DNA from: Crassostrea angulata
Lineage: Eukaryota
Length of the DNA stretch: 55,623 nt
Direction of reading: 5' to 3'
NCBI RefSeq assembly: GCF_025612915.1
Contig: NC_069115.1
Location: 8,423,492 to 8,479,114, forward strand
The position numbers and the translations under genes were made by a program. Every line of letters starts with the position of its first letter. Within the stretch, counting starts at the first letter, position 1. The notes below the pieces were generated by a model. The model made no database searches. It saw only the letters and a list, made by a program, of their open reading frames with translations, and was not told where the DNA came from. Shown here in pieces: positions 3,591-53,143 of the stretch.

Positions 3591-4907
3591 ATGGCCAGAA
3601 AAAAGGCAAAAACAAGGGGGAGCTACCAAAAAAATGACCCCTCAGTAATGGAGCAGGCGGTAAAAGCTGTACAATCGGGGGCGCTGTCTTTAAGAAAAGC
3701 CGCGGAGAAGTTTAATGTCCACAAGTCAACTTTGCACGACAGAGTGACGAAACGAGTTACTCTCGATGCAAAGCCTGGGAGAAAGCCTGTGCTCTCGAAC
3801 GAAATTGAAAAAAGAATTATAAAAAATGTTACTGAAAGTGCTGAGAAGGGTTTCGGTATATCAAGAAAACAACTCCTTCATCGAGCTGCTGTTCTTTGTA
3901 AAAGGAACAAAATTACAGGTTTCAAAAACTTCACACCATCTAAACACTGGTGGGAAGGTCTGAAAAAAAGGCACCCCGAGGTTGCGTTAAGGAAGCCAGA
4001 AAAGCTCGGCACAGTACGTGCAAGAATGCTTAATGGCTGTGTAGTAGAAAAGTATTTCGCAGACCTATCTAAAATAGTTGTTAACCCTGGTTTGCAAGAG
4101 AAACCAGAAAATATATGGAACTGCGACGAAACCGGCAAGCAGTTAGAGCACACGCCCGTCAATGTCATTGCCAGACGTGGCAGCAAATCTGTTGTTGGCC
4201 GCACTGGCAATGACAGGTCAAATATTACAATCATGGCCTGCGTAAATGCCACTGGGGATTCCATGCCCCCTATGCTTATAGTGAAGGGCAAGACTAAAAA
4301 GTCTTTATTCGGCTTCAACACAGCCGAGTCTCCCCAAAATTCAGTTTGGACATACAATGAAAAGGCTTGGATGAATGAGGAGTTGGGGGAACAGTGGTTT
4401 CGGGAGGTTTTTCTAGCGCACTGTGGCCCCGTGAGACCCCAACTTCTCATTCTGGATGGCCACGGATCTCACGAAACACTCGGCTTGCTAGAACTTGCAG
4501 CGGAGGAAAATATACATATATTAGCACTACCTCCCCATACCACTCACTTTTTGCAACCCCTAGACAGAACTGTATTCGGTCCGTTCAATAAGGCGTACAA
4601 CAGGGTTTGTTCTGAATTTTTGTCTGAAAATCCGAGTAACTTAATAAACAAATGGACGTTTCCAAAAATGTTTTCTAAAGCATGGGAGGCTGCAATTACG
4701 AAAGAAAACATCCAGAGTGGCTTCAGGGCCTGTGGGATCTACCCACTCAATCCCCATGCGATTCCGACATCGGCATATTTACCGAGCTCAGCTTACGAGA
4801 CAAGCATGCCCGTTGCGGAAACACCAGCAGCTTTAGGGAGACCGCCATCTCCAAGTGCCGCCGACAATGAAAATATTCCAAGCATCAATATGCCCATCCC
4901 GCCATAA
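3591..4907 (+). CDS. pogo/Tigger-type DDE transposase (N-terminal psq/CENP-B-like HTH, Tc5-like HTH, DDE_1 endonuclease domain)
   Basis: 438-aa ORF. HTH: SVMEQAVKAVQSGALSLRKAAEKFNVHKSTLHDRV. DDE_1 signatures: NIWNCDETG, LLILDGHGSHETL, ILALPPHTTHFLQPLDRTVFGPFNKAY. Sits inside the TIR-bounded element. Confidence 0.8.
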   Translation: MARKKAKTRGSYQKNDPSVMEQAVKAVQSGALSLRKAAEKFNVHKSTLHDRVTKRVTLDAKPGRKPVLSNEIEKRIIKNVTESAEKGFGISRKQLLHRAAVLCKRNKITGFKNFTPSKHWWEGLKKRHPEVALRKPEKLGTVRARMLNGCVVEKYFADLSKIVVNPGLQEKPENIWNCDETGKQLEHTPVNVIARRGSKSVVGRTGNDRSNITIMACVNATGDSMPPMLIVKGKTKKSLFGFNTAESPQNSVWTYNEKAWMNEELGEQWFREVFLAHCGPVRPQLLILDGHGSHETLGLLELAAEENIHILALPPHTTHFLQPLDRTVFGPFNKAYNRVCSEFLSENPSNLINKWTFPKMFSKAWEAAITKENIQSGFRACGIYPLNPHAIPTSAYLPSSAYETSMPVAETPAALGRPPSPSAADNENIPSINMPIPP

Positions 4908-12714: not shown

Positions 12715-13650
12715 CTCTATGTGTGAGAATAGAGAAGAAGATTTTTAAACATTATATGCATTAACGCTATATTGCCCCCTCCCCTCATGTCCTGAACCCC
12801 TGACCCAGGGGCCATGATTTCACAATTTAGGTAAAGGAGATTGTGGATATCATAACCATGTATTCAGTTTTTTGCCCACATGTGTGGGAGTAGAGAAGGT
12901 TTAAAACATTTTTACTATATGGCCATATTGGCCCCACCCTAGAGCCTGAACACCTAACAAAGGGGTCATGAATTACACAATTGTGGTAGAGGGCCGTCAT
13001 GGACATCATAACCATGCATTTAGTTTTTAACAAATATATATGGGAGTAGAGAAGAGGATTTTCCAAGATTTAATACATTTTTACTATATGGCCATATTGG
13101 CCCCACCCTCGAGCCAGAATCCCTGACCAAGGGGTCATGAATTTCACAATTTAGGTTGAGGGCTTCATGGACATCATTATCATGCATTTAGTTTTAAACA
13201 AACATATATGATAGTAGAGAAGAAGATTTTCTAAGATTTAATACATTTTTACTATTTGGCCATATTGGCCCCACCCTAGAGCCTGAACCCCTGATCCAGG
13301 GGTCATGAATTTCACATTGTGGTAGAGGGCTTCATGGGCATCATAATCATGCATTTAGTTTTTAAAAATATATATATGGTAGTTGAGAAGAACATTTTCT
13401 AAGATTTAACAGATTTGTACTATATTGCCATATTGGCCCCACCCTCGAGCCAGAACCCCTGACCCAGGGGCCATAAATTTCACAATTTTGGTAGAGGGCT
13501 TCATGGACATCATCACCATGCAAACAATTTTTTTTCTCACATGCGTGGGAGTAGATAATAAGATTTTTAAAAATTTGGCTTTTCTGCATATTTGGCCCCG
13601 CCCGTGGCACCCCAGGGGTGGTAGAGCCATGAATTTCACAATTTAGATTC
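12715..13650. repeat. Satellite-like tandem array, about 165-170 bp monomer x about 6
   Basis: Direct periodicity of ggccccaccct...ggggtcatgaatttcacaatt at about 12780, 12935, 13100, 13270, 13437, 13590. ORFs 13362..13781, 13406..13639 and 13425..13646 are artefacts of this repeat. Confidence 0.75.
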
Positions 13651-13806
13651 TTCTTACCAAAGTGGTGCTTCACACCAAAATGGTAACGATTGGCCTGGTA
13701 GTTTTTAGGAAGAAGTTTAAAATGTAAAATTGTTAACGCACGGCGCACGACGACGGACGAAGACCAATTGCAATAGGTCACCCGAGTGACTCAGGTGACC
13801 TAAAAA
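12715..13806 (+). mobile_element. pearl/Helentron-like HINE-type element (5' truncated) carrying a satellite array
   Basis: About six tandem monomers of about 165-170 bp (12715-13650) with core ggccccaccct(a/c)gagcc.gaa(c)ccctgacc(a/c)(a)ggggtcatgaatttcacaattt. Then a GACG-type microsatellite (cgcacggcgcacgacgacggacgaagac), the subterminal palindrome ggtcacccgagtgactcaggtgacc and terminus ctaaaaaa (13806). This is the same build as the elements at 14914-16697 and others. Confidence 0.55.
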
Positions 13807-14227
13807 ATGATTTCTGAAATTTCACTCATGAGACTCAGTAATCTACTGAGTCTTGTCAGTAGAACTGAAATTATTTGCATAAGGATTTGATGTAATACTA
13901 TACTTAAAACCTATTATGTACATTACTGTGTTCTACCGAGTGACTTAAATTTAGCGAAATTCACTGCAATCTCGGCAATCATTGGATCTTTAAAATTTAC
14001 AAGAATGCAATAGACTTGAAATATTTTGGTGCTTAAGTGCCGTAATGTATGAGGAATGTGAGAAAAGATTTCAAAGTTTTTAATGCAATCATCATTGATG
14101 GTCTGAAAAACTTAGAAATGTACAACATGATCATTTAAATGCAGCAGATATTATTCATACAGTGTGCTTTGATTTCTATGTCATGTGGACAGGGAGGTAT
14201 TACAACGGATACATCTTCTAGTGACTC

Positions 14228-14913: not shown

Positions 14914-14947
<34 letters not shown>

Positions 14948-16533
14948 GAACAATAGGTATAATAAAATCAGCTTAATAGAGTCATAATTAATACAAACTA
15001 TCTGGACAATGTACAATAATACATGTAGATCCTGTATAAATAAAATCCATTTTTCCCCTGGATATTCTTGTTTATAATCATTGGTCCCTTTTCTAACAGG
15101 ATGATTTTATAGTCATATCATATGTTGAGTATTGCAGTTTTCAAAAAGATCCTTAACAATAGTTTATATATGGGATATAAACCTACATCAAACTCTGAAC
15201 CTTCTTGTAAAGCCAAAGAATTGTCCTGGGGCCAAAGTCTTAACAATTATAAAGAATCATCTGGCTGATTAGTTTCAGAGAAGAAGATTTTTAAAGATTT
15301 ACTCTATATATTCCTATGTTTAATTTCAACCCCCCATTGTGGCCCCACCCTACCCCCGGGGGTCATGATTTTCACAACTTTGTCAATTGAATCTACACTA
15401 CCAGAGGATGCTTCCACACAAGTTTCAGCTTTCCTGGCTGATTAGTTTCTGAGAAGAAGATTTTTAAAGATTTACTCTATATATTCATGTGTTAAACTTC
15501 AACCCCCCATTGTGGCCCCATCCTACCCCCGGGGGACTTAATTTTCACAACTTTGTATCTACACTACCTGAAGATGCTTCCACACAAGTTTCAGATTTTT
15601 AAAGATTTACTCTATATAATCATATGTAAAAGTTTAACACCCCCCCCCCCCCCATTGTGGCCCCATCCTACCCCCGGGGGTCATGATTTTCACAACTTTG
15701 TATCTACACTACCTGAGGATGCTTCCACACAAGTTTCAGCTTTCCTGGCTGATTAGTGTCTGAGAAGAAGATTTTTAAAGATTTACCCTGTATATTCCTA
15801 TGTAAAAGTTCGACCCCCATTGTGGTCCCACCCTATCCCCGGGGGTCATGATTTTCACAACTTTGAATCTACACTACCTGAAAATGCTGCCACACAAGTT
15901 TCAGCTTTCCTGGCTGATTAATTTCTGAGTAGAAGGTTTTTAAAGATTTACTCTATATATTTCTATGTTAAACTTCAATCCCCCATTGTGGCCCCACCCT
16001 ACCTCTGGGGGTCATGATTTTCACAACTTTAAATTTACATGACCTGAGGATGCTGCCACACAAGTGTTAGCTTTCCTGGCTGATTAGTTTCAGAAAAGAA
16101 GATTTTTAAAGATTTACTCTATATATTCATGTGTTAAACTTCGAACCCCCATTGTGGCCCCACCCTACCACCGGGGGTCATGATTTTCACAACTTTGTAC
16201 CTACACTACCTGAGGATGCTTCCACAAAAGTTTCAGCTTTCCTGGCTGAATAGTGTTTGAGAAGATTTTTAAAGATGTACTCTATATATTCCTATGTTAA
16301 ACTTCGACCCCCATTGTGGCCCCACCCTACTCCCGGGGGTCATGATTTTCACAAATTTGAATCTGAATCTACACTACCTGAGGATGCTTTCACATAAGTT
16401 TCAGCTTTTCTGGTCTTATGGTTCATGAGATTTTCGAAAATTTCTCGAAATTTTTCATAAATTCCTAATTATCTCCCTTTGCAAAAGGGCGTGATCCTTA
16501 ATTTTCACAACTTTGAATCCCCTTAAGCTAAAA

Positions 16534-48180: not shown

Positions 48181-49171
48181 TAAGTATTTGTATCTCATGT
48201 CGCTGGAAAAAGTTTTGGAGAAATTTTGAATTTTGAGAGGTTGGCGAAAAGTTTATAACTTCTATACACGTTTCTCCTCAAGCCAGGCAATCTAAGGGGG
48301 TGACCAAAAACTGCTTATTGTTTTCAGTCGCACTGTATTTTCATTATGTTGTTCAAAGATTCTGTTAAATAGCTGTTGGTGCAAAGTTCCTTCATAATTA
48401 AACCGGTAATGAGCTGCATGACGTGGCCTATTTAGTTCTGCTTCACCTAGTGCTTGAAATATGTTTCAAACCGAGGTTTTTATTTGTATTAAGCTTTATG
48501 AATCATCACTTTTTTGGTTAAACCACATCGTCCAAATAATATCTTTACTATATTTTCAGTGTTTTTCCTTAAAAATCTATTTTTTTTAAATCATTTGTAT
48601 TGTCTTTCATATGTACATGTACATAAAATGTTTATAATTGTTAAAATGCATTTTAAATGGCTTTGGTTATTGTCTTCTCCCCGTTACTTCCAACGATGAT
48701 GTGTTGTCTATCGTCTGTCTAATGTGTGAAAGGAAAGTAAAGTATGTGTCATAGTCACTGTCATTATGCAACATCATGGTTCCTGGCATTATTGAAAGAT
48801 CTCGCGTCTATCTTTTGAATAACTGACTTTACGTATATGTCAACTCCGAAACAAAGTAAGGATTCAAACCTACAATTGGTTCTCCATTACTACAGTTGGC
48901 TTTTTGATTTGTTCTGTCTTGTAAAGTATTATTAAAGATATCTTTTTTTTTCATTGTAAAAGTTATTTGTTGGATGTATATGAGATTCTGAAGGGAGCAT
49001 GATATTTGATGTGTTTCATCTGCAATGGCAACAAGTTTAAATATATTCGTTCTACCATTTTCCTAAATGCATGATTTTCCTCGTCCTTAGTTTAATACCA
49101 ATTTATTTCATGAAGAATTCTTAATCGTTTTAAGATGTTCTAATATTGTCCACGTCTTTTAGTCCGCCTCT

Positions 49172-49216
49172 TTCCTCTCTCTCTTTCTCTCTCTCTCTCT
49201 CTATATATATATCTAT
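49172..49216. repeat. Compound microsatellite (CT)n-(TA)n
   Basis: tttcctctctctctttctctctctctctctatatatatatcta. Confidence 0.7.
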
Positions 49217-49602
49217 AAACACCACCACCCCCTCCGAAAAAAAAAATCATTTTATAGTGTACTTATAATACCTTTAATACCTTGATGACAGACGGAAAAC
49301 ACAATTCAATAGCCTAGTGGAAAGATCTTTAACACCGCTAACAATTGGATAGAGACTCTCTAGTTTAAACATGATGATAATGTTCTTGGCAATCATGGTC
49401 CATGAAGACAAAAATAACTACTGTCTTAATGCTTTTTCTGACATCTTATCATAGTCTAATGATAAACACAACGAAGTTGCCTTATCTCTGTGCTTCTGTA
49501 TTTTACGCCATTGGATACCATCCCAAACGCTTGCAATTGAGCTATACCGACATGATTTAACTACACACAATGTTATTTAAGGTAAGTAAATTGTACTCTA
49601 CC

Positions 49603-49892
49603 CAGAGTTATCGTTCCTGCTTCGCTCCACTTATACCTCTGTTAACGTTTAAAAAGTAGTGCCACGAAATCATTGGTAATGGAGTATTACTCCGAGAAAT
49701 AGTTCATTGTTGACCTGATTTACCAATATATTCTTTTTATTTCAAAATTTTAGCAAGGCTTTAACATCGAAATGTAGACTGAATACATATAAAACTATAA
49801 TTTATAATATCATGATTGAAATGGGTTTTGCCAAGATTCTTGGCATTTAGACGTTAACAGAGGTGTTGTAGCGCAGCGTAATACGCCCTCTG
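49603..49892. repeat. Imperfect about 45-bp inverted repeat pair flanking about 200 bp; possible MITE
   Basis: Left cccagagttatcgttcctgcttcgctccacttatacctctgttaacgt (49604-49646). The reverse complement of 49851-49892 is accagagggcgtattacgctgcgctacaacacctctgttaacgtc. The two share a perfect 13-bp core (cctctgttaacgt / acgttaacagagg). No TSD identified. Confidence 0.3.
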
Positions 49893-51412
49893 GTGAGAGA
49901 TTGAAAAATAGCGTAAAGTTAAAAGTAAAATTAACTCGTTTCAAAAATAATTATTAAGTCGTACTTGAACACATTCGGATTTTCTGATTTAAGTCGTTTT
50001 AAGAATAGGAAATGTTTATGTTAATTTGGATTATGTGTAGTCGTACCAGAATTATTCCATTTTTTTCTTTTGAATAAGTTACCCTTGTTATTTGTGTAAG
50101 AACTTTGATTTTACAAGTACTTCAAGTTTTACTCTCGACATTAATGGAATACCCACTCGTTGCTTTTGCTCTAGTTTCATCTATTTCTTTTTTAAAAATT
50201 GATTATTTCTTGTTTTATTAACTATGAAGAATTATATTAATTATTTTTTTTTTACCTGGGTAACAGTTTTCAACAGATCCTGCTTTGTGCTATCACTGCT
50301 TTATATTTCTAAGGAATTAACACATTAGCAAACTGTTTTCTGCTACGACACTCATACCGTGTGTCTAAAACCTTCATTATTGTCCGAAATCAGAAGAATT
50401 TACTGTTTTGTGCGGTCTTGGGTCTTTTAAAATTAAATTTGCAATACAGTCGGTATTTTCCTATGTAAAAATTCAAACCGCCATCACGGTCCCGCCCTAC
50501 CACTAGGGACTGTGATTTTGCAAACTTTAATTTATACTACCCGAGGATGCCTCTACACAAGTTTAAGCTTTTCTGGCCAAAAAGTCTCTAAAAGAAGATT
50601 TTTAAAGATATTCTCTATATATTCCCAAGTAAAAATATATCCCCCATTGTGGCACCACCCTACCCCCAGGGACCATGATTTGAACAAACTAGAGTCTACA
50701 TTATCTGAGAATGGTTACACACCAATTTGAACTTTCTTGGGCAAATAGTTTTTAAAAGAATTTTTTTAAAAGATTTTTTCTATATATTCCTATGTTAAAC
50801 TTGATCCCCAATTTGTGGCCCCACCCTACCCCCGGGGACCATGAGTTGAAGAAACTTGAATCTACATTATCTGAGGATGGTTACACGCCAATTTGAGCTT
50901 TCTTGGCCAAACAGTTTATGAGAAGAAGATTTTTAAAGATTTTCTTTATATATTCCTATATAAAAATTTATCCCCCAATTGTGGCCCCAACCTAGCCATG
51001 GGGACCATGATTTGAGCAAACTTGAATCTACACTATCTGAGGATGCTTCCACTCAAATTTGAGTTTTCCTGGTCTAATAGTTTATGAGACGAAGATTTTT
51101 AAAGATTTTCTCTTTATATTCATATGTAAAACTTGATCCCCCAATTGTGGGCCCGCACTACCCCCGGTAACCATGATTTGAACAAACTTGAATCTACACT
51201 ATCTGAGGATGCCTCCATTTTAATTTGTGCTTTTCTGGCCTAATAGTTTTTGAGAAAAAGATTTTTAAAGATTTTCTCTATATATTCCTATGTAAAACTA
51301 GATCCCCCAATTGTGGCCCAATCCTACCCCCGGGGATCACTATTTGAACAAACTTGAATCTACACTATCTGAGGATGCTTCTACTCAAATTTGAGCTTTC
51401 CTGGCCTAATAC

Positions 51413-52210
51413 TTTTTGTCCCCCGCCGCAACGCGGAGCGGGGACATAGAAATGCCGGGCGTCCGTCCGTCCGTGGGTCCGTGTGTCCGTGCGTCCGTCC
51501 GTCACACTTTTTTGTAAGCGCTCTCATGCCTACAAATTTTGACGGATTTTCATTAAATTTATACCAAATGTTTATACCACTATTACCTTGGTCAAGTTCG
51601 AAAATCAGCATTGGTCGATACTTTTTGTTGGCGTTATGGGACTTTGACCACAATCATGACTCCGTTTTATCCAAAAATTGACCTTGTAAGCGCGCTCATG
51701 CCTACAAATTTTGACGGATTTTCATTAAAATTATACCAAATGTTTATACCACTATTACCTTGGTCAAGTTCGAAAATCAGCATTGGTCGATACTTTTTGT
51801 TGGCGTTATGGGACTTTGACCACAATAATGACTCCGTTTTATCCATAAATTGACCTTGTAAGTGCTCTCATGCCTACAAATTTTGACAGATTTTCATTAA
51901 ATTTATACCAAATGTTTATACTACTAATACTTTGGTCAAGTACAAAAATCAGCATTGGTCGATACTTTTTGTTGGAGTTATGGGACTTTGACCACAATCA
52001 TGACTCCGTTTTTTTCCAAAAATTGACCTTGTAAGGGCGCTCATGCCTACAAATATTGACGGATTTTCATTAAATTTATACCAAATGTTTATACCACTAA
52101 TACCTTGGTCAAGTTCCTAAATCAGCATTGGTCGATAGACTCGATACTAGTATACTGCTTGACCGGCGGGGGACCCTGGAATTCTATTCTTGTTGAGAAG
52201 AAGATTTTTG
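51413..52210 (-). mobile_element. Nested HINE-like element of a distinct family, inserted in opposite orientation into a T-run of the host satellite monomer
   Basis: Read on the minus strand: 5' acaagaatagaattccagg|gtcccccgccg (from 52210); about 3.6 copies of its own 172-bp tandem repeat (51514-52140); (GACG/GACGGAC)n (51463-51508); the hairpin gtccccgctccgcgttgcggcgggggac; and aaaaa (51413-51417). The 11-bp gtcccccgccg / cggcgggggac motifs at 51418-51428 and 52181-52191 are inverted. The host monomer sequence cctaatagttttt|gagaagaag is split around the element. Confidence 0.6.
51514..52140. repeat. Tandem repeat, 172-bp monomer x about 3.6 (internal to the nested element)
   Basis: gtaagcgctctcatgcctacaaattttgacggattttcattaaatttataccaaatgtttataccactattaccttggtcaagttcgaaaatcagcattggtcgatactttttgttggcgttatgggactttgaccacaatcatgactccgttttatccaaaaattgacctt repeats at 51514, 51686, 51858 and 52030. 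Confidence 0.8.
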
Positions 52211-52436
52211 AAGATTTTCTCTATATATTCCTATGTAAAACTTGATCCCCCAATTGTGGCCCCACCCTACCCCGGGGACAATGATTTGAACGAACTTGAA
52301 TCTACACTGCCTGATGATGCCTCCACACAAGTTTAAGCTTTTCAGGCCGAATAGTTTTTGAGAAGAAGATTTTTGAAAAAATACCTAAAAATTTACAAAA
52401 AATCTCAATTATCTCCCCTTTAAAGAGGACGTGGCA

Positions 52437-52468
<32 letters not shown>

Positions 52469-52673
52469 TAGTGGTGCTTTGTGCCAAATTTAGTTGAAAT
52501 CTGCCCAGTGGTTCTTGAGAAGAAGATAAAAATGTGAAAAGTTTATAACAACGACGACAACAACGACAGACAACGGACAAATTGTGATCAGAAAAGCTCA
52601 CTTCAGCCTTTGGCTCAGGTGAGCTAAAAATTCCACAACACTCCTAAGTATTCCTTCAACAAATTCTTTATAA

Positions 52674-53143
52674 ATGCATGCCAATTTTTCTACTATTGGA
52701 CATTCATATAACAGCCAATTTCACAGTCAAAAAATGCACTACACAAGGTACAGTAGAAATAATGTTAAGAATTCTTCAAAGATCATAGGGTTACACGGCA
52801 GAAAAACCCGATTGCTGGATGACTTTGCAAAGCAATTTAAAAGGCATACAATAAAAGTACAGCGATTGGCTGCAAGAGACTCTCAGAAGTCGGTAGGAAA
52901 ACTGGAAAGAAACAGTTTGACTGAGAAGAAAAATTGGTGCAAAAAGAAGAAATCTGACGTCTTGGCAGATAATGTAGGCACTTTTCAAAAAGCACTAATC
53001 AAGATTTCTGTCCTCCCTTAGTATTACAAAATCAGAGATTCATTCTGTCCTGTTGACAATCTTAGTGCAACTTGCTGGTTCAATGCATATTTAAAACAAA
53101 CATGGCAATGTCCAATCTCTGCTTGTTTGAAACTGCACCAGTA
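52674..53143 (+). other. ORF interrupted by one in-frame TAG; downstream part carries a cysteine-protease Cys-box-like motif
   Basis: ORF 52674..53021, then the same frame after TAG (53019-53021, inside tgtcctcccttag|): YYKIRDSFCPVDNLSATCWFNAYLKQTWQCPISACLKLHQ*. The motif N.SATCWFNA.L.Q resembles the USP/C19 Cys box (GNTC[YFW].N[SA].LQ), but no His box or longer catalytic domain follows. Confidence 0.2.

Follow-up and report, generated by a model that had tools for sequence, protein, structure and literature searches.

A probable Helentron-type element nested within the satellite repeats of an older element of opposite orientation in Crassostrea angulata

How do two unrelated families of satellite DNA come to lie interleaved at a single locus? 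The question is raised by a stretch of 55,623 nucleotides from the oyster Crassostrea angulata (assembly GCF_025612915.1, contig NC_069115.1, positions 8,423,492 to 8,479,114 of the forward strand), which was analysed at its full length and is referred to below as the window. Towards its right end a satellite array carried by a HINE (Helentron-associated interspersed element) is broken by a segment with tandem repeats of its own, and a reading of the letters alone, the original prediction, had it that a second such element inserted here in the opposite orientation. We find it very probable that the segment, positions 51418-52194, is a complete non-autonomous HINE of the Helentron type which transposed into the run of five T's (T5) in a satellite monomer of an older HINE of opposite orientation, and that it did so without target-site duplication. 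The insertion event and its properties can be read directly from the locus: exact excision restores the monomer, no sequence is duplicated, the target is an oligo-T tract, the insert has the structural modules of such elements and it is younger than its host.

Part of the evidence comes from the empty site. When host monomers were phased on the motif GAGAAGAAG and then aligned, the monomer before the interruption was found to be exactly 166 bp long and to end in ...CTAATACTTTTT (in a longer form ...CCTAATACTTTTT) with T5 as its last bases, and position 52195 to be the exact start of the following host monomer, GAGAAGAAGATTTTT, in which the GAGAAGAAG motif comes first. Since one 166-bp monomer thus ends at 51417 and the next starts at 52195, deletion of the 777 bp in between leaves the host monomer at 166 bp and restores the periodicity of the array to the base. 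The consensus of CgiSat01a from C. gigas (supplement of PMC8268682) served as an independent reference for the empty site, and the rejoined 80-nt site (...ATAGTTTTTGAGAAGAA... at the junction) aligns with the consensus ...CATAGTTTTTGAGAAGAA... through the junction and with no gap at the join, across which the restored consensus reads ...ATAGTTTTT/GAGAAGAA... Two single-base gaps are found 8-10 nt downstream of the join, but these are common to every monomer of the host array. The reconstruction against uninterrupted monomers that had been suggested as a check is accordingly contiguous, and the claims that the insertion lies inside the T-run of a monomer, that it lacks a long target-site duplication and that two satellite families are interleaved at one locus, the 166-bp array resuming directly after the insert, are all borne out. 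With CgiSat01a, one of the 52 CgiSat families (PMC8268682), the host monomers share 82-87% identity, and for two neighbouring arrays, at 15261-16413 and 28520-30260, the identity with CgiSat01b is 94%. These identities place the window in C. gigas or a very close relative and the host repeat in the Cg170/HindIII satellite family, whose carriers in C. gigas are the non-autonomous Helentrons of Cg_HINE group 1 (PMC7492417).

The same reconstruction corrects the limits of the inserted element, which had been placed at 51413-52210 and so took in five T's of the host at the left end and 16 nt of a host monomer at the right end. The terminal ACAAGA that had been read at 52210 is in fact the 3' terminus TCTTGT, at 52188-52193, as it appears on the minus strand. 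Because the insert ends in ...CTTGTT and is preceded by TTTTT, its boundaries may slide by 0-2 nt, from 51416-52192 up to 51418-52194, and the insertion point is accordingly either the 3' edge of T5 or between its last T's (after ...ATAGTTTTT and before GAGAAG...). Beyond the flanking T's there is no target-site duplication at either junction, and insertion in T-rich or TT sequence without such duplication is a hallmark of HINEs that is seen here. Thomas et al. left it undecided whether the flanking T's of these elements are part of the element itself or of its target (PMC4067079). In the nested case the target itself is known to be T5, with five T's to the left of the insert and two to its right. 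The element can therefore contribute two terminal T's at most, which leaves three or more of the five upstream T's to the host. A target of fixed sequence is rare and, combined with this upper limit of two, could help to place the Helentron nick within oligo-T. All six HINE-like 5' junctions of the window likewise have at least five T's immediately upstream of the 5' subterminal inverted repeat (subTIR).

A 777-bp block might also have arrived without any transposition, by double-strand-break repair, by ectopic recombination at T-runs or as an assembly chimera, and it speaks for such an origin that T-runs and repeat-rich regions are generally prone to misassembly and template switching and that the window is dense in HINE copies. 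Both junctions however fall at the same point of the monomer with the host phase kept to the base, and the limits of the block coincide with complete element termini, the 5' subTIR starting at its first base and its 3' end being the TCTTGT that is shared with other copies (see below). Random filler or a chimera is not expected to start and stop at element termini, and we regard an origin of this kind as extremely improbable.

The transposition of a HINE is furthermore supported by the internal organisation of the insert, in which a pair of subTIRs, an inverted repeat (IR) next to the 5' subTIR, a microsatellite and central tandem repeats are found and coding capacity is not (Table 1). The modules of the insert follow each other in the order published for Cg_HINE and DINE-1 elements, which supports the identification of the insert as a HINE. 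The 11-nt sequence of the subTIR has two matches in the window, both at the ends of the insert, where 0.05 would be expected, and the hairpin formed by the 5' subTIR and its IR has a DNA fold of -11.8 kcal/mol (z = -4.55), with none of 200 shuffles as good. Tandem Repeats Finder (TRF) labels the microsatellite (CGTC)n at 51460-51503, and this is, read on the minus strand, the (GACG)n microsatellite that had been noted before. The central monomers have a GC content of 34.8% and are 94-98% identical among themselves in a monomer alignment, and a sensitive blastn search found no match to them elsewhere in the window, the host monomer included, so the insert indeed has an unrelated 172-bp repeat of its own. 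The right flank comprises 57 nt, with the 3' subTIR inside it.

Table 1. Features of the inserted element, its host and the other HINE-like 5' ends of the window
Feature	Position	Strand	Description or evidence
Inserted non-autonomous HINE, complete (probable)	51418-52194	+	777 bp; empty-site reconstruction
5' subTIR GTCCCCCGCCG	51418-51428	+	From first inserted base onward; 11-nt perfect inverted repeat with 52164-52174
5' IR CGCGGAGCGGGGAC	51432-51445	+	Complementary to 5' subTIR; pairs into 28-nt hairpin 51418-51445
Left-flank microsatellite, imperfect (GTCC/GTCY)n	51455-51503	+	8-nt sub-period; TRF periods 4, 8, 16
Central tandem repeat, 172-bp monomer	51512-52137	+	TRF: 3.6 copies, 94% matches
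3' subTIR CGGCGGGGGAC	52164-52174	+	20 nt from 3' end
3' tail CCTGGAATTCTATTCTTGTT	52175-52194	+	20 nt; imperfect palindrome GGAATTCt 52178-52185; terminal TCTTGT 52188-52193
Host HINE central array, left part	50521-51417	-	TRF: 166-bp period, 5.4 copies, 82% matches
Host monomer before interruption	51252-51417	-	Exactly 166 bp; T5 target run 51413-51417 is its end
Host array, right part	52195-52374	-	In-phase monomer 52195-52359 and start of next; phasing and alignment
Host HINE left (5') flank	52375-52630	-	T5 52626-52630, then subTIR, IR, microsatellite, spacer
Host 5' subTIR AGCTCACCTGAGCC	52612-52625	-	subTIR matches
Host IR	52595-52608	-	Sequence comparison
Host microsatellite	52547-52580	-	Sequence comparison
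HINE-like 5' end, element C	~13807	-	
HINE-like 5' end, copy A	~16690	-	
HINE-like 5' end, copy B1	30276	-	
HINE-like 5' end, copy B2	~32110	-	
HINE-like 5' end, host	52625	-	

The longest open reading frame (ORF) overlapping the insert has 96 aa and runs through the repeats, and of the insert ORFs one, an 80-aa repeat ORF, was searched for homologues and gave no protein homologue. Since no ORF exceeds 96 aa and the ORF searched has no homologue, the insert is non-autonomous. An exact look-up of two insert ORFs among recorded proteins likewise gave no match. An origin of the 172-bp monomer from an RNA gene was considered and rejected, as an Rfam scan of 50300-52800 returned one sub-threshold chance match only. 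It should also be mentioned that at 52120-52160 the last, truncated 172-bp monomer meets the right flank at a short repeated motif, GGTCGATA-GAC-TCGATAC. This motif hints at sequence common to repeat and right flank, and at an array that may have grown from sequence internal to the element.

It could be argued that both kinds of tandem repeat belong to a single composite HINE, formed by sequence capture or recombination and not by transposition of one element into another. Cg_HINEs with double arrays are indeed known, Cg_HINE_10_13 and Cg_HINE_11_12, with multiple insertions proposed as their origin (PMC7492417), and from C. gigas there are reports of shuffled loci in which a single element contains different arrays (PMC12628747). 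The inner segment at the present locus however has a complete subTIR pair, an IR and a microsatellite of its own, it is oriented opposite to the host flank, and it interrupts one monomer in exact phase with the host array resuming afterwards, whereas the published double arrays are consecutive between a single pair of flanks and always have their repeats oriented as the flanks (PMC7492417). A composite origin is therefore exceedingly unlikely, and an annotation of the locus should enter two elements, one on each strand, and not one composite repeat.

That insert and host are oppositely oriented was foreseen correctly, but the polarity assigned to each end of the insert has to be reversed, since the insert occupies the plus strand and its host the minus strand. 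In the published layout of Cg_HINE and DINE-1 elements the 5' end has a subTIR, a complementary IR and the microsatellite, and the 3' end has a subTIR and a short palindrome (PMC7492417, PMC4067079). As hairpin and microsatellite are both 5' modules in this layout, the hairpin end of the insert is its 5' end, and what had been taken for a 3' hairpin followed by AAAAA is the 5' subTIR/IR hairpin next to the T-run of the host. Five further HINE-like 5' ends of the window are likewise organised as T-run, subTIR-IR and microsatellite, and all of these are on the minus strand. In comparisons with the host-family elements the insert microsatellite is similar only to their microsatellites, and only in reverse complement, and the minus orientation of the host was itself deduced from the position of its left flank. 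The opposite polarity would make the insert a minus-strand, Helitron-like element that opens with ACAAGA... at its 5' end and closes at its 3' end with a hairpin and then AAAAA. It has in its favour the 3'-proximal hairpin of canonical Helitrons (PMC12628747) and the fact that the strongest hairpin of the insert is the one at 51418-51445. In HINEs, however, the subTIR/IR hairpin adjoins the microsatellite at the 5' end, as observed here, the AAAAA is host sequence, and there is neither a 5'-TC nor a 3'-CTRR nor a target between A and T. Furthermore, the flanks of a minus-strand element would read A...A and not the reported T...T. The minus-strand polarity is for these reasons very unlikely. 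The preference of Helentrons for insertion between T's, to which the locus had been said to conform, is accordingly supported as far as the oligo-T target is concerned, but not with the polarity that went with it, since the flanks read T...T on the strand of the insert itself only if the element is on the plus strand.

As to how a plus-strand HINE of this kind would have reached its target, what is known of Helentrons and HINEs offers a plausible course. The insert encodes nothing and would have been mobilised in trans by the Rep/helicase (and possibly endonuclease) protein of an autonomous Helentron, which would recognise the subTIRs or terminal sequences. Transfer would proceed through a single-stranded intermediate of the rolling-circle type, and joining, without duplication, would take place where the oligo-T tract is nicked, either inside it or at its 3' edge. 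The two interleaved satellite families would then be a passive outcome of the insertion. Some observations weigh against the transposition of a complete HINE and should be set beside the evidence for it. There is no autonomous Helentron in the window, the only long ORF encoding a DDE transposase of the pogo/Tc5 type. Blastn with word sizes of 11 and 7 found no second copy of the insert within the window, and with a single copy there a mobile, repeated family with these consensus ends is suggested by structure alone. Exact-pattern scans gave no match either for a monomer 30-mer among viral contigs, for 22-mers of the monomer and of the right flank among metagenome contigs or for a monomer 22-mer among prokaryote genome contigs, but a 26-mer of the abundant host satellite was equally absent from the viral and prokaryote contigs, which contain no detectable oyster DNA. 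The precise position of the nick within the T-run is furthermore not resolvable, the 3' palindrome is weak, with a fold of 52160-52200 that is no better than that of shuffles (z = -0.09), and the 3' subTIR sits only 20 nt from the end of the insert.

The orders of age at the locus agree with nesting. The repeat of the insert has 94% matches and its subTIRs are perfect, while the host array has 82% matches and the 3' flank of the host is gone, and by this contrast the insert is the younger of the two, as nesting requires. Compared with its counterparts in copies A and B2, the left flank of the host shows 79-81% identity, and its 5' hairpin has a fold of -8.6 kcal/mol (z = -2.0). On the other side of the host array, at 49000-50520, there is neither a 3' subTIR with three mismatches or fewer nor a right flank like that of copy A, and because both are missing to the left of its array the host copy appears to be truncated at its 3' end. 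The array itself decays into a degenerate monomer at about 50388-50520.

Does the nesting reflect a preference of these elements for the satellite arrays of one another, as was also claimed? With the insert removed, 48 of the 541 runs of at least five T's or A's in the window (8.9%) are found in arrays of the Cg170 type, and these arrays make up 8.8% of the window. Special targeting of arrays was therefore rejected, oligo-T/A runs being no denser in the arrays than expected from their share of the bases. A plain preference for oligo-T is enough to explain the insertion, with about one in eleven landings expected in such arrays here, and because a single event is at hand and the density of runs equals the share of the arrays, the claim that the elements target the arrays of each other is not established. 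One may go further and imagine that insertion of HINEs into HINEs at the conserved T5 of Cg170-type monomers is recurrent or preferred, and that intermediates which lose their inner termini give rise to double-array elements such as Cg_HINE_10_13 and Cg_HINE_11_12 and to new mixed satellite 'libraries', but this we consider unlikely.

Cg_HINEs, the non-autonomous Helentrons of C. gigas with arrays resembling satellite DNA (Helitron-N*_CGi in Repbase; Vojvoda Zeljko et al. 2020, PMC7492417), are the elements that the insert resembles most closely in its parts. It has in common with them subTIRs of 11-12 nt, an IR 1-12 nt past the 5' subTIR, a left-flank microsatellite of the GTCY type with units of 4-8 nt, a short array whose monomers measure 140-180 bp and a 3' subTIR that lies within a right flank of about 60 bp, as well as an oligo-T or TT target, the lack of a target-site duplication and the occurrence of both orientations in the genome (PMC7492417). 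Cg_HINE_9 (CL9, Helitron-N23_CGi) has a monomer of 173 bp with 33.2% GC, about 3.45 monomers per array, a right flank of 56 bp and mostly perfect subTIRs, to be compared with 172 bp, 34.8% GC, 3.6 monomers, 57 bp and perfect subTIRs in the insert, a likeness that extends to summary figures only. Five invariant 10-16-mers from the 172-bp monomer were compared, on both strands, with the 52 CgiSat consensus sequences (PMC8268682) and none occurs there, so that by this measure the monomer is absent from the catalogue. Sequence fragments from the insert and the host termini gave no match in the relevant full texts or in the supplements of PMC7492417. Strings of the 12-nt subTIRs were found in full text in unrelated papers only.

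By its architecture the insert is furthermore comparable with DINE-1 of Drosophila and with the HINEs of mites and mosquitoes (Thomas, Vadnagara & Pritham 2014, PMC4067079), with which it has in common the subTIRs, the IR near the 5' subTIR, the microsatellite, the central repeats and the absence of coding sequence, and likewise the preference for T-rich or TT sites, the unmodified target site and the uncertain ownership of the flanking T's. It differs from them in the spacing of its termini, since the 3' subTIR lies 20 nt from the end as against 38-60 nt in the mite families and the 5' subTIR 0-2 nt from the end as against 2-4 nt (PMC4067079), and the stem-loop of the insert is weak. Its 3' palindrome is likewise far weaker than the GGCCCATGGGCC of the host-family right flank.

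Canonical Helitrons have 5'-TC...CTRR-3' ends and insert between A and T. The insert shares with them the lack of a target-site duplication, the existence of non-autonomous derivatives and a presumed mechanism of the rolling-circle type. Its ends however are (T)GTCCCC... and ...TCTTGT(T), its target is TTTTT/GAG and it has subterminal inverted repeats, so neither the TC and CTRR termini nor the A/T insertion of canonical Helitrons is found.

The nesting of such elements is not new. Insertion of Cg_HINEs into repetitive DNA and other transposons has been reported (PMC7492417), and so have nested or shuffled Helitron/Helentron loci with mixed arrays in C. gigas (PMC12628747). The phenomenon is thus already described in that species and the present locus is a clean but ordinary example of it, although unlike the shuffled loci and double arrays of C. 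gigas it is a simple and fully resolvable nesting of two layers, with an intact inner element, an empty site that is exact to the base and no single pair of flanks common to both arrays. It can be followed here to the base how a tandem-repeat derivative of a Helentron lands in the array of another and thereby interleaves unrelated satellites, and nesting of this sort has already been invoked for the scattered and shuffled organisation of oyster satellite DNA. The locus also amounts to a natural empty-site experiment, as the target before insertion is known from neighbouring monomers and from the consensus, and the termini are bounded within 2 nt.

The other HINE-like copies of the window deserve some mention. 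The right flank and spacer of copies A and B1 (14914-15260 and 28176-28519) extend over 347 bp and are 93% identical, and the arrays of both are of the CgiSat01b type, with 94% identity to the consensus. The two lie at a distance of 13 kb with the same orientation and appear to be young members of one subfamily. Both share with the insert the 3' terminal hexamer TCTTGT (14914-14931, 28176-28193 and 52188-52193), their right flanks being otherwise unrelated to it. The palindrome preceding the hexamer is the perfect 12-nt GGCCCATGGGCC in A and B1 and merely GGAATTCt in the insert. The recurrence of TCTTGT in these three copies hints that it may be a common terminal requirement. In copy B1 the 5' subTIR AGCTCACCTGAGAA (30263-30281) is preceded by TTTTT and fused straight to a satellite monomer, the IR and microsatellite having been deleted, and about 1.5 kb away copy B2 (31800-32110) is an orphan left flank of the same family as B1, with subTIR, IR and microsatellite but no regular array.

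The transposase ORF mentioned above, at 3591-4907 on the plus strand, is uninterrupted over 438 aa and is of the pogo/Tc5 type by its Pfam domains (DDE_1 with 6e-33, HTH_psq and HTH_Tnp_Tc5), and the exact protein has no record in the public gene index. Element C (12794-13807, minus strand) has a left flank in which TTTTTT directly precedes AGGTCACCTGAGTCACTCGGGTGACCT, together with a (GTCG/GTCC)n microsatellite. In its array TRF finds a period of 168 bp at 12896-13522 and a period of 336 bp over 12794-13597, which suggests a higher-order unit of two monomers.

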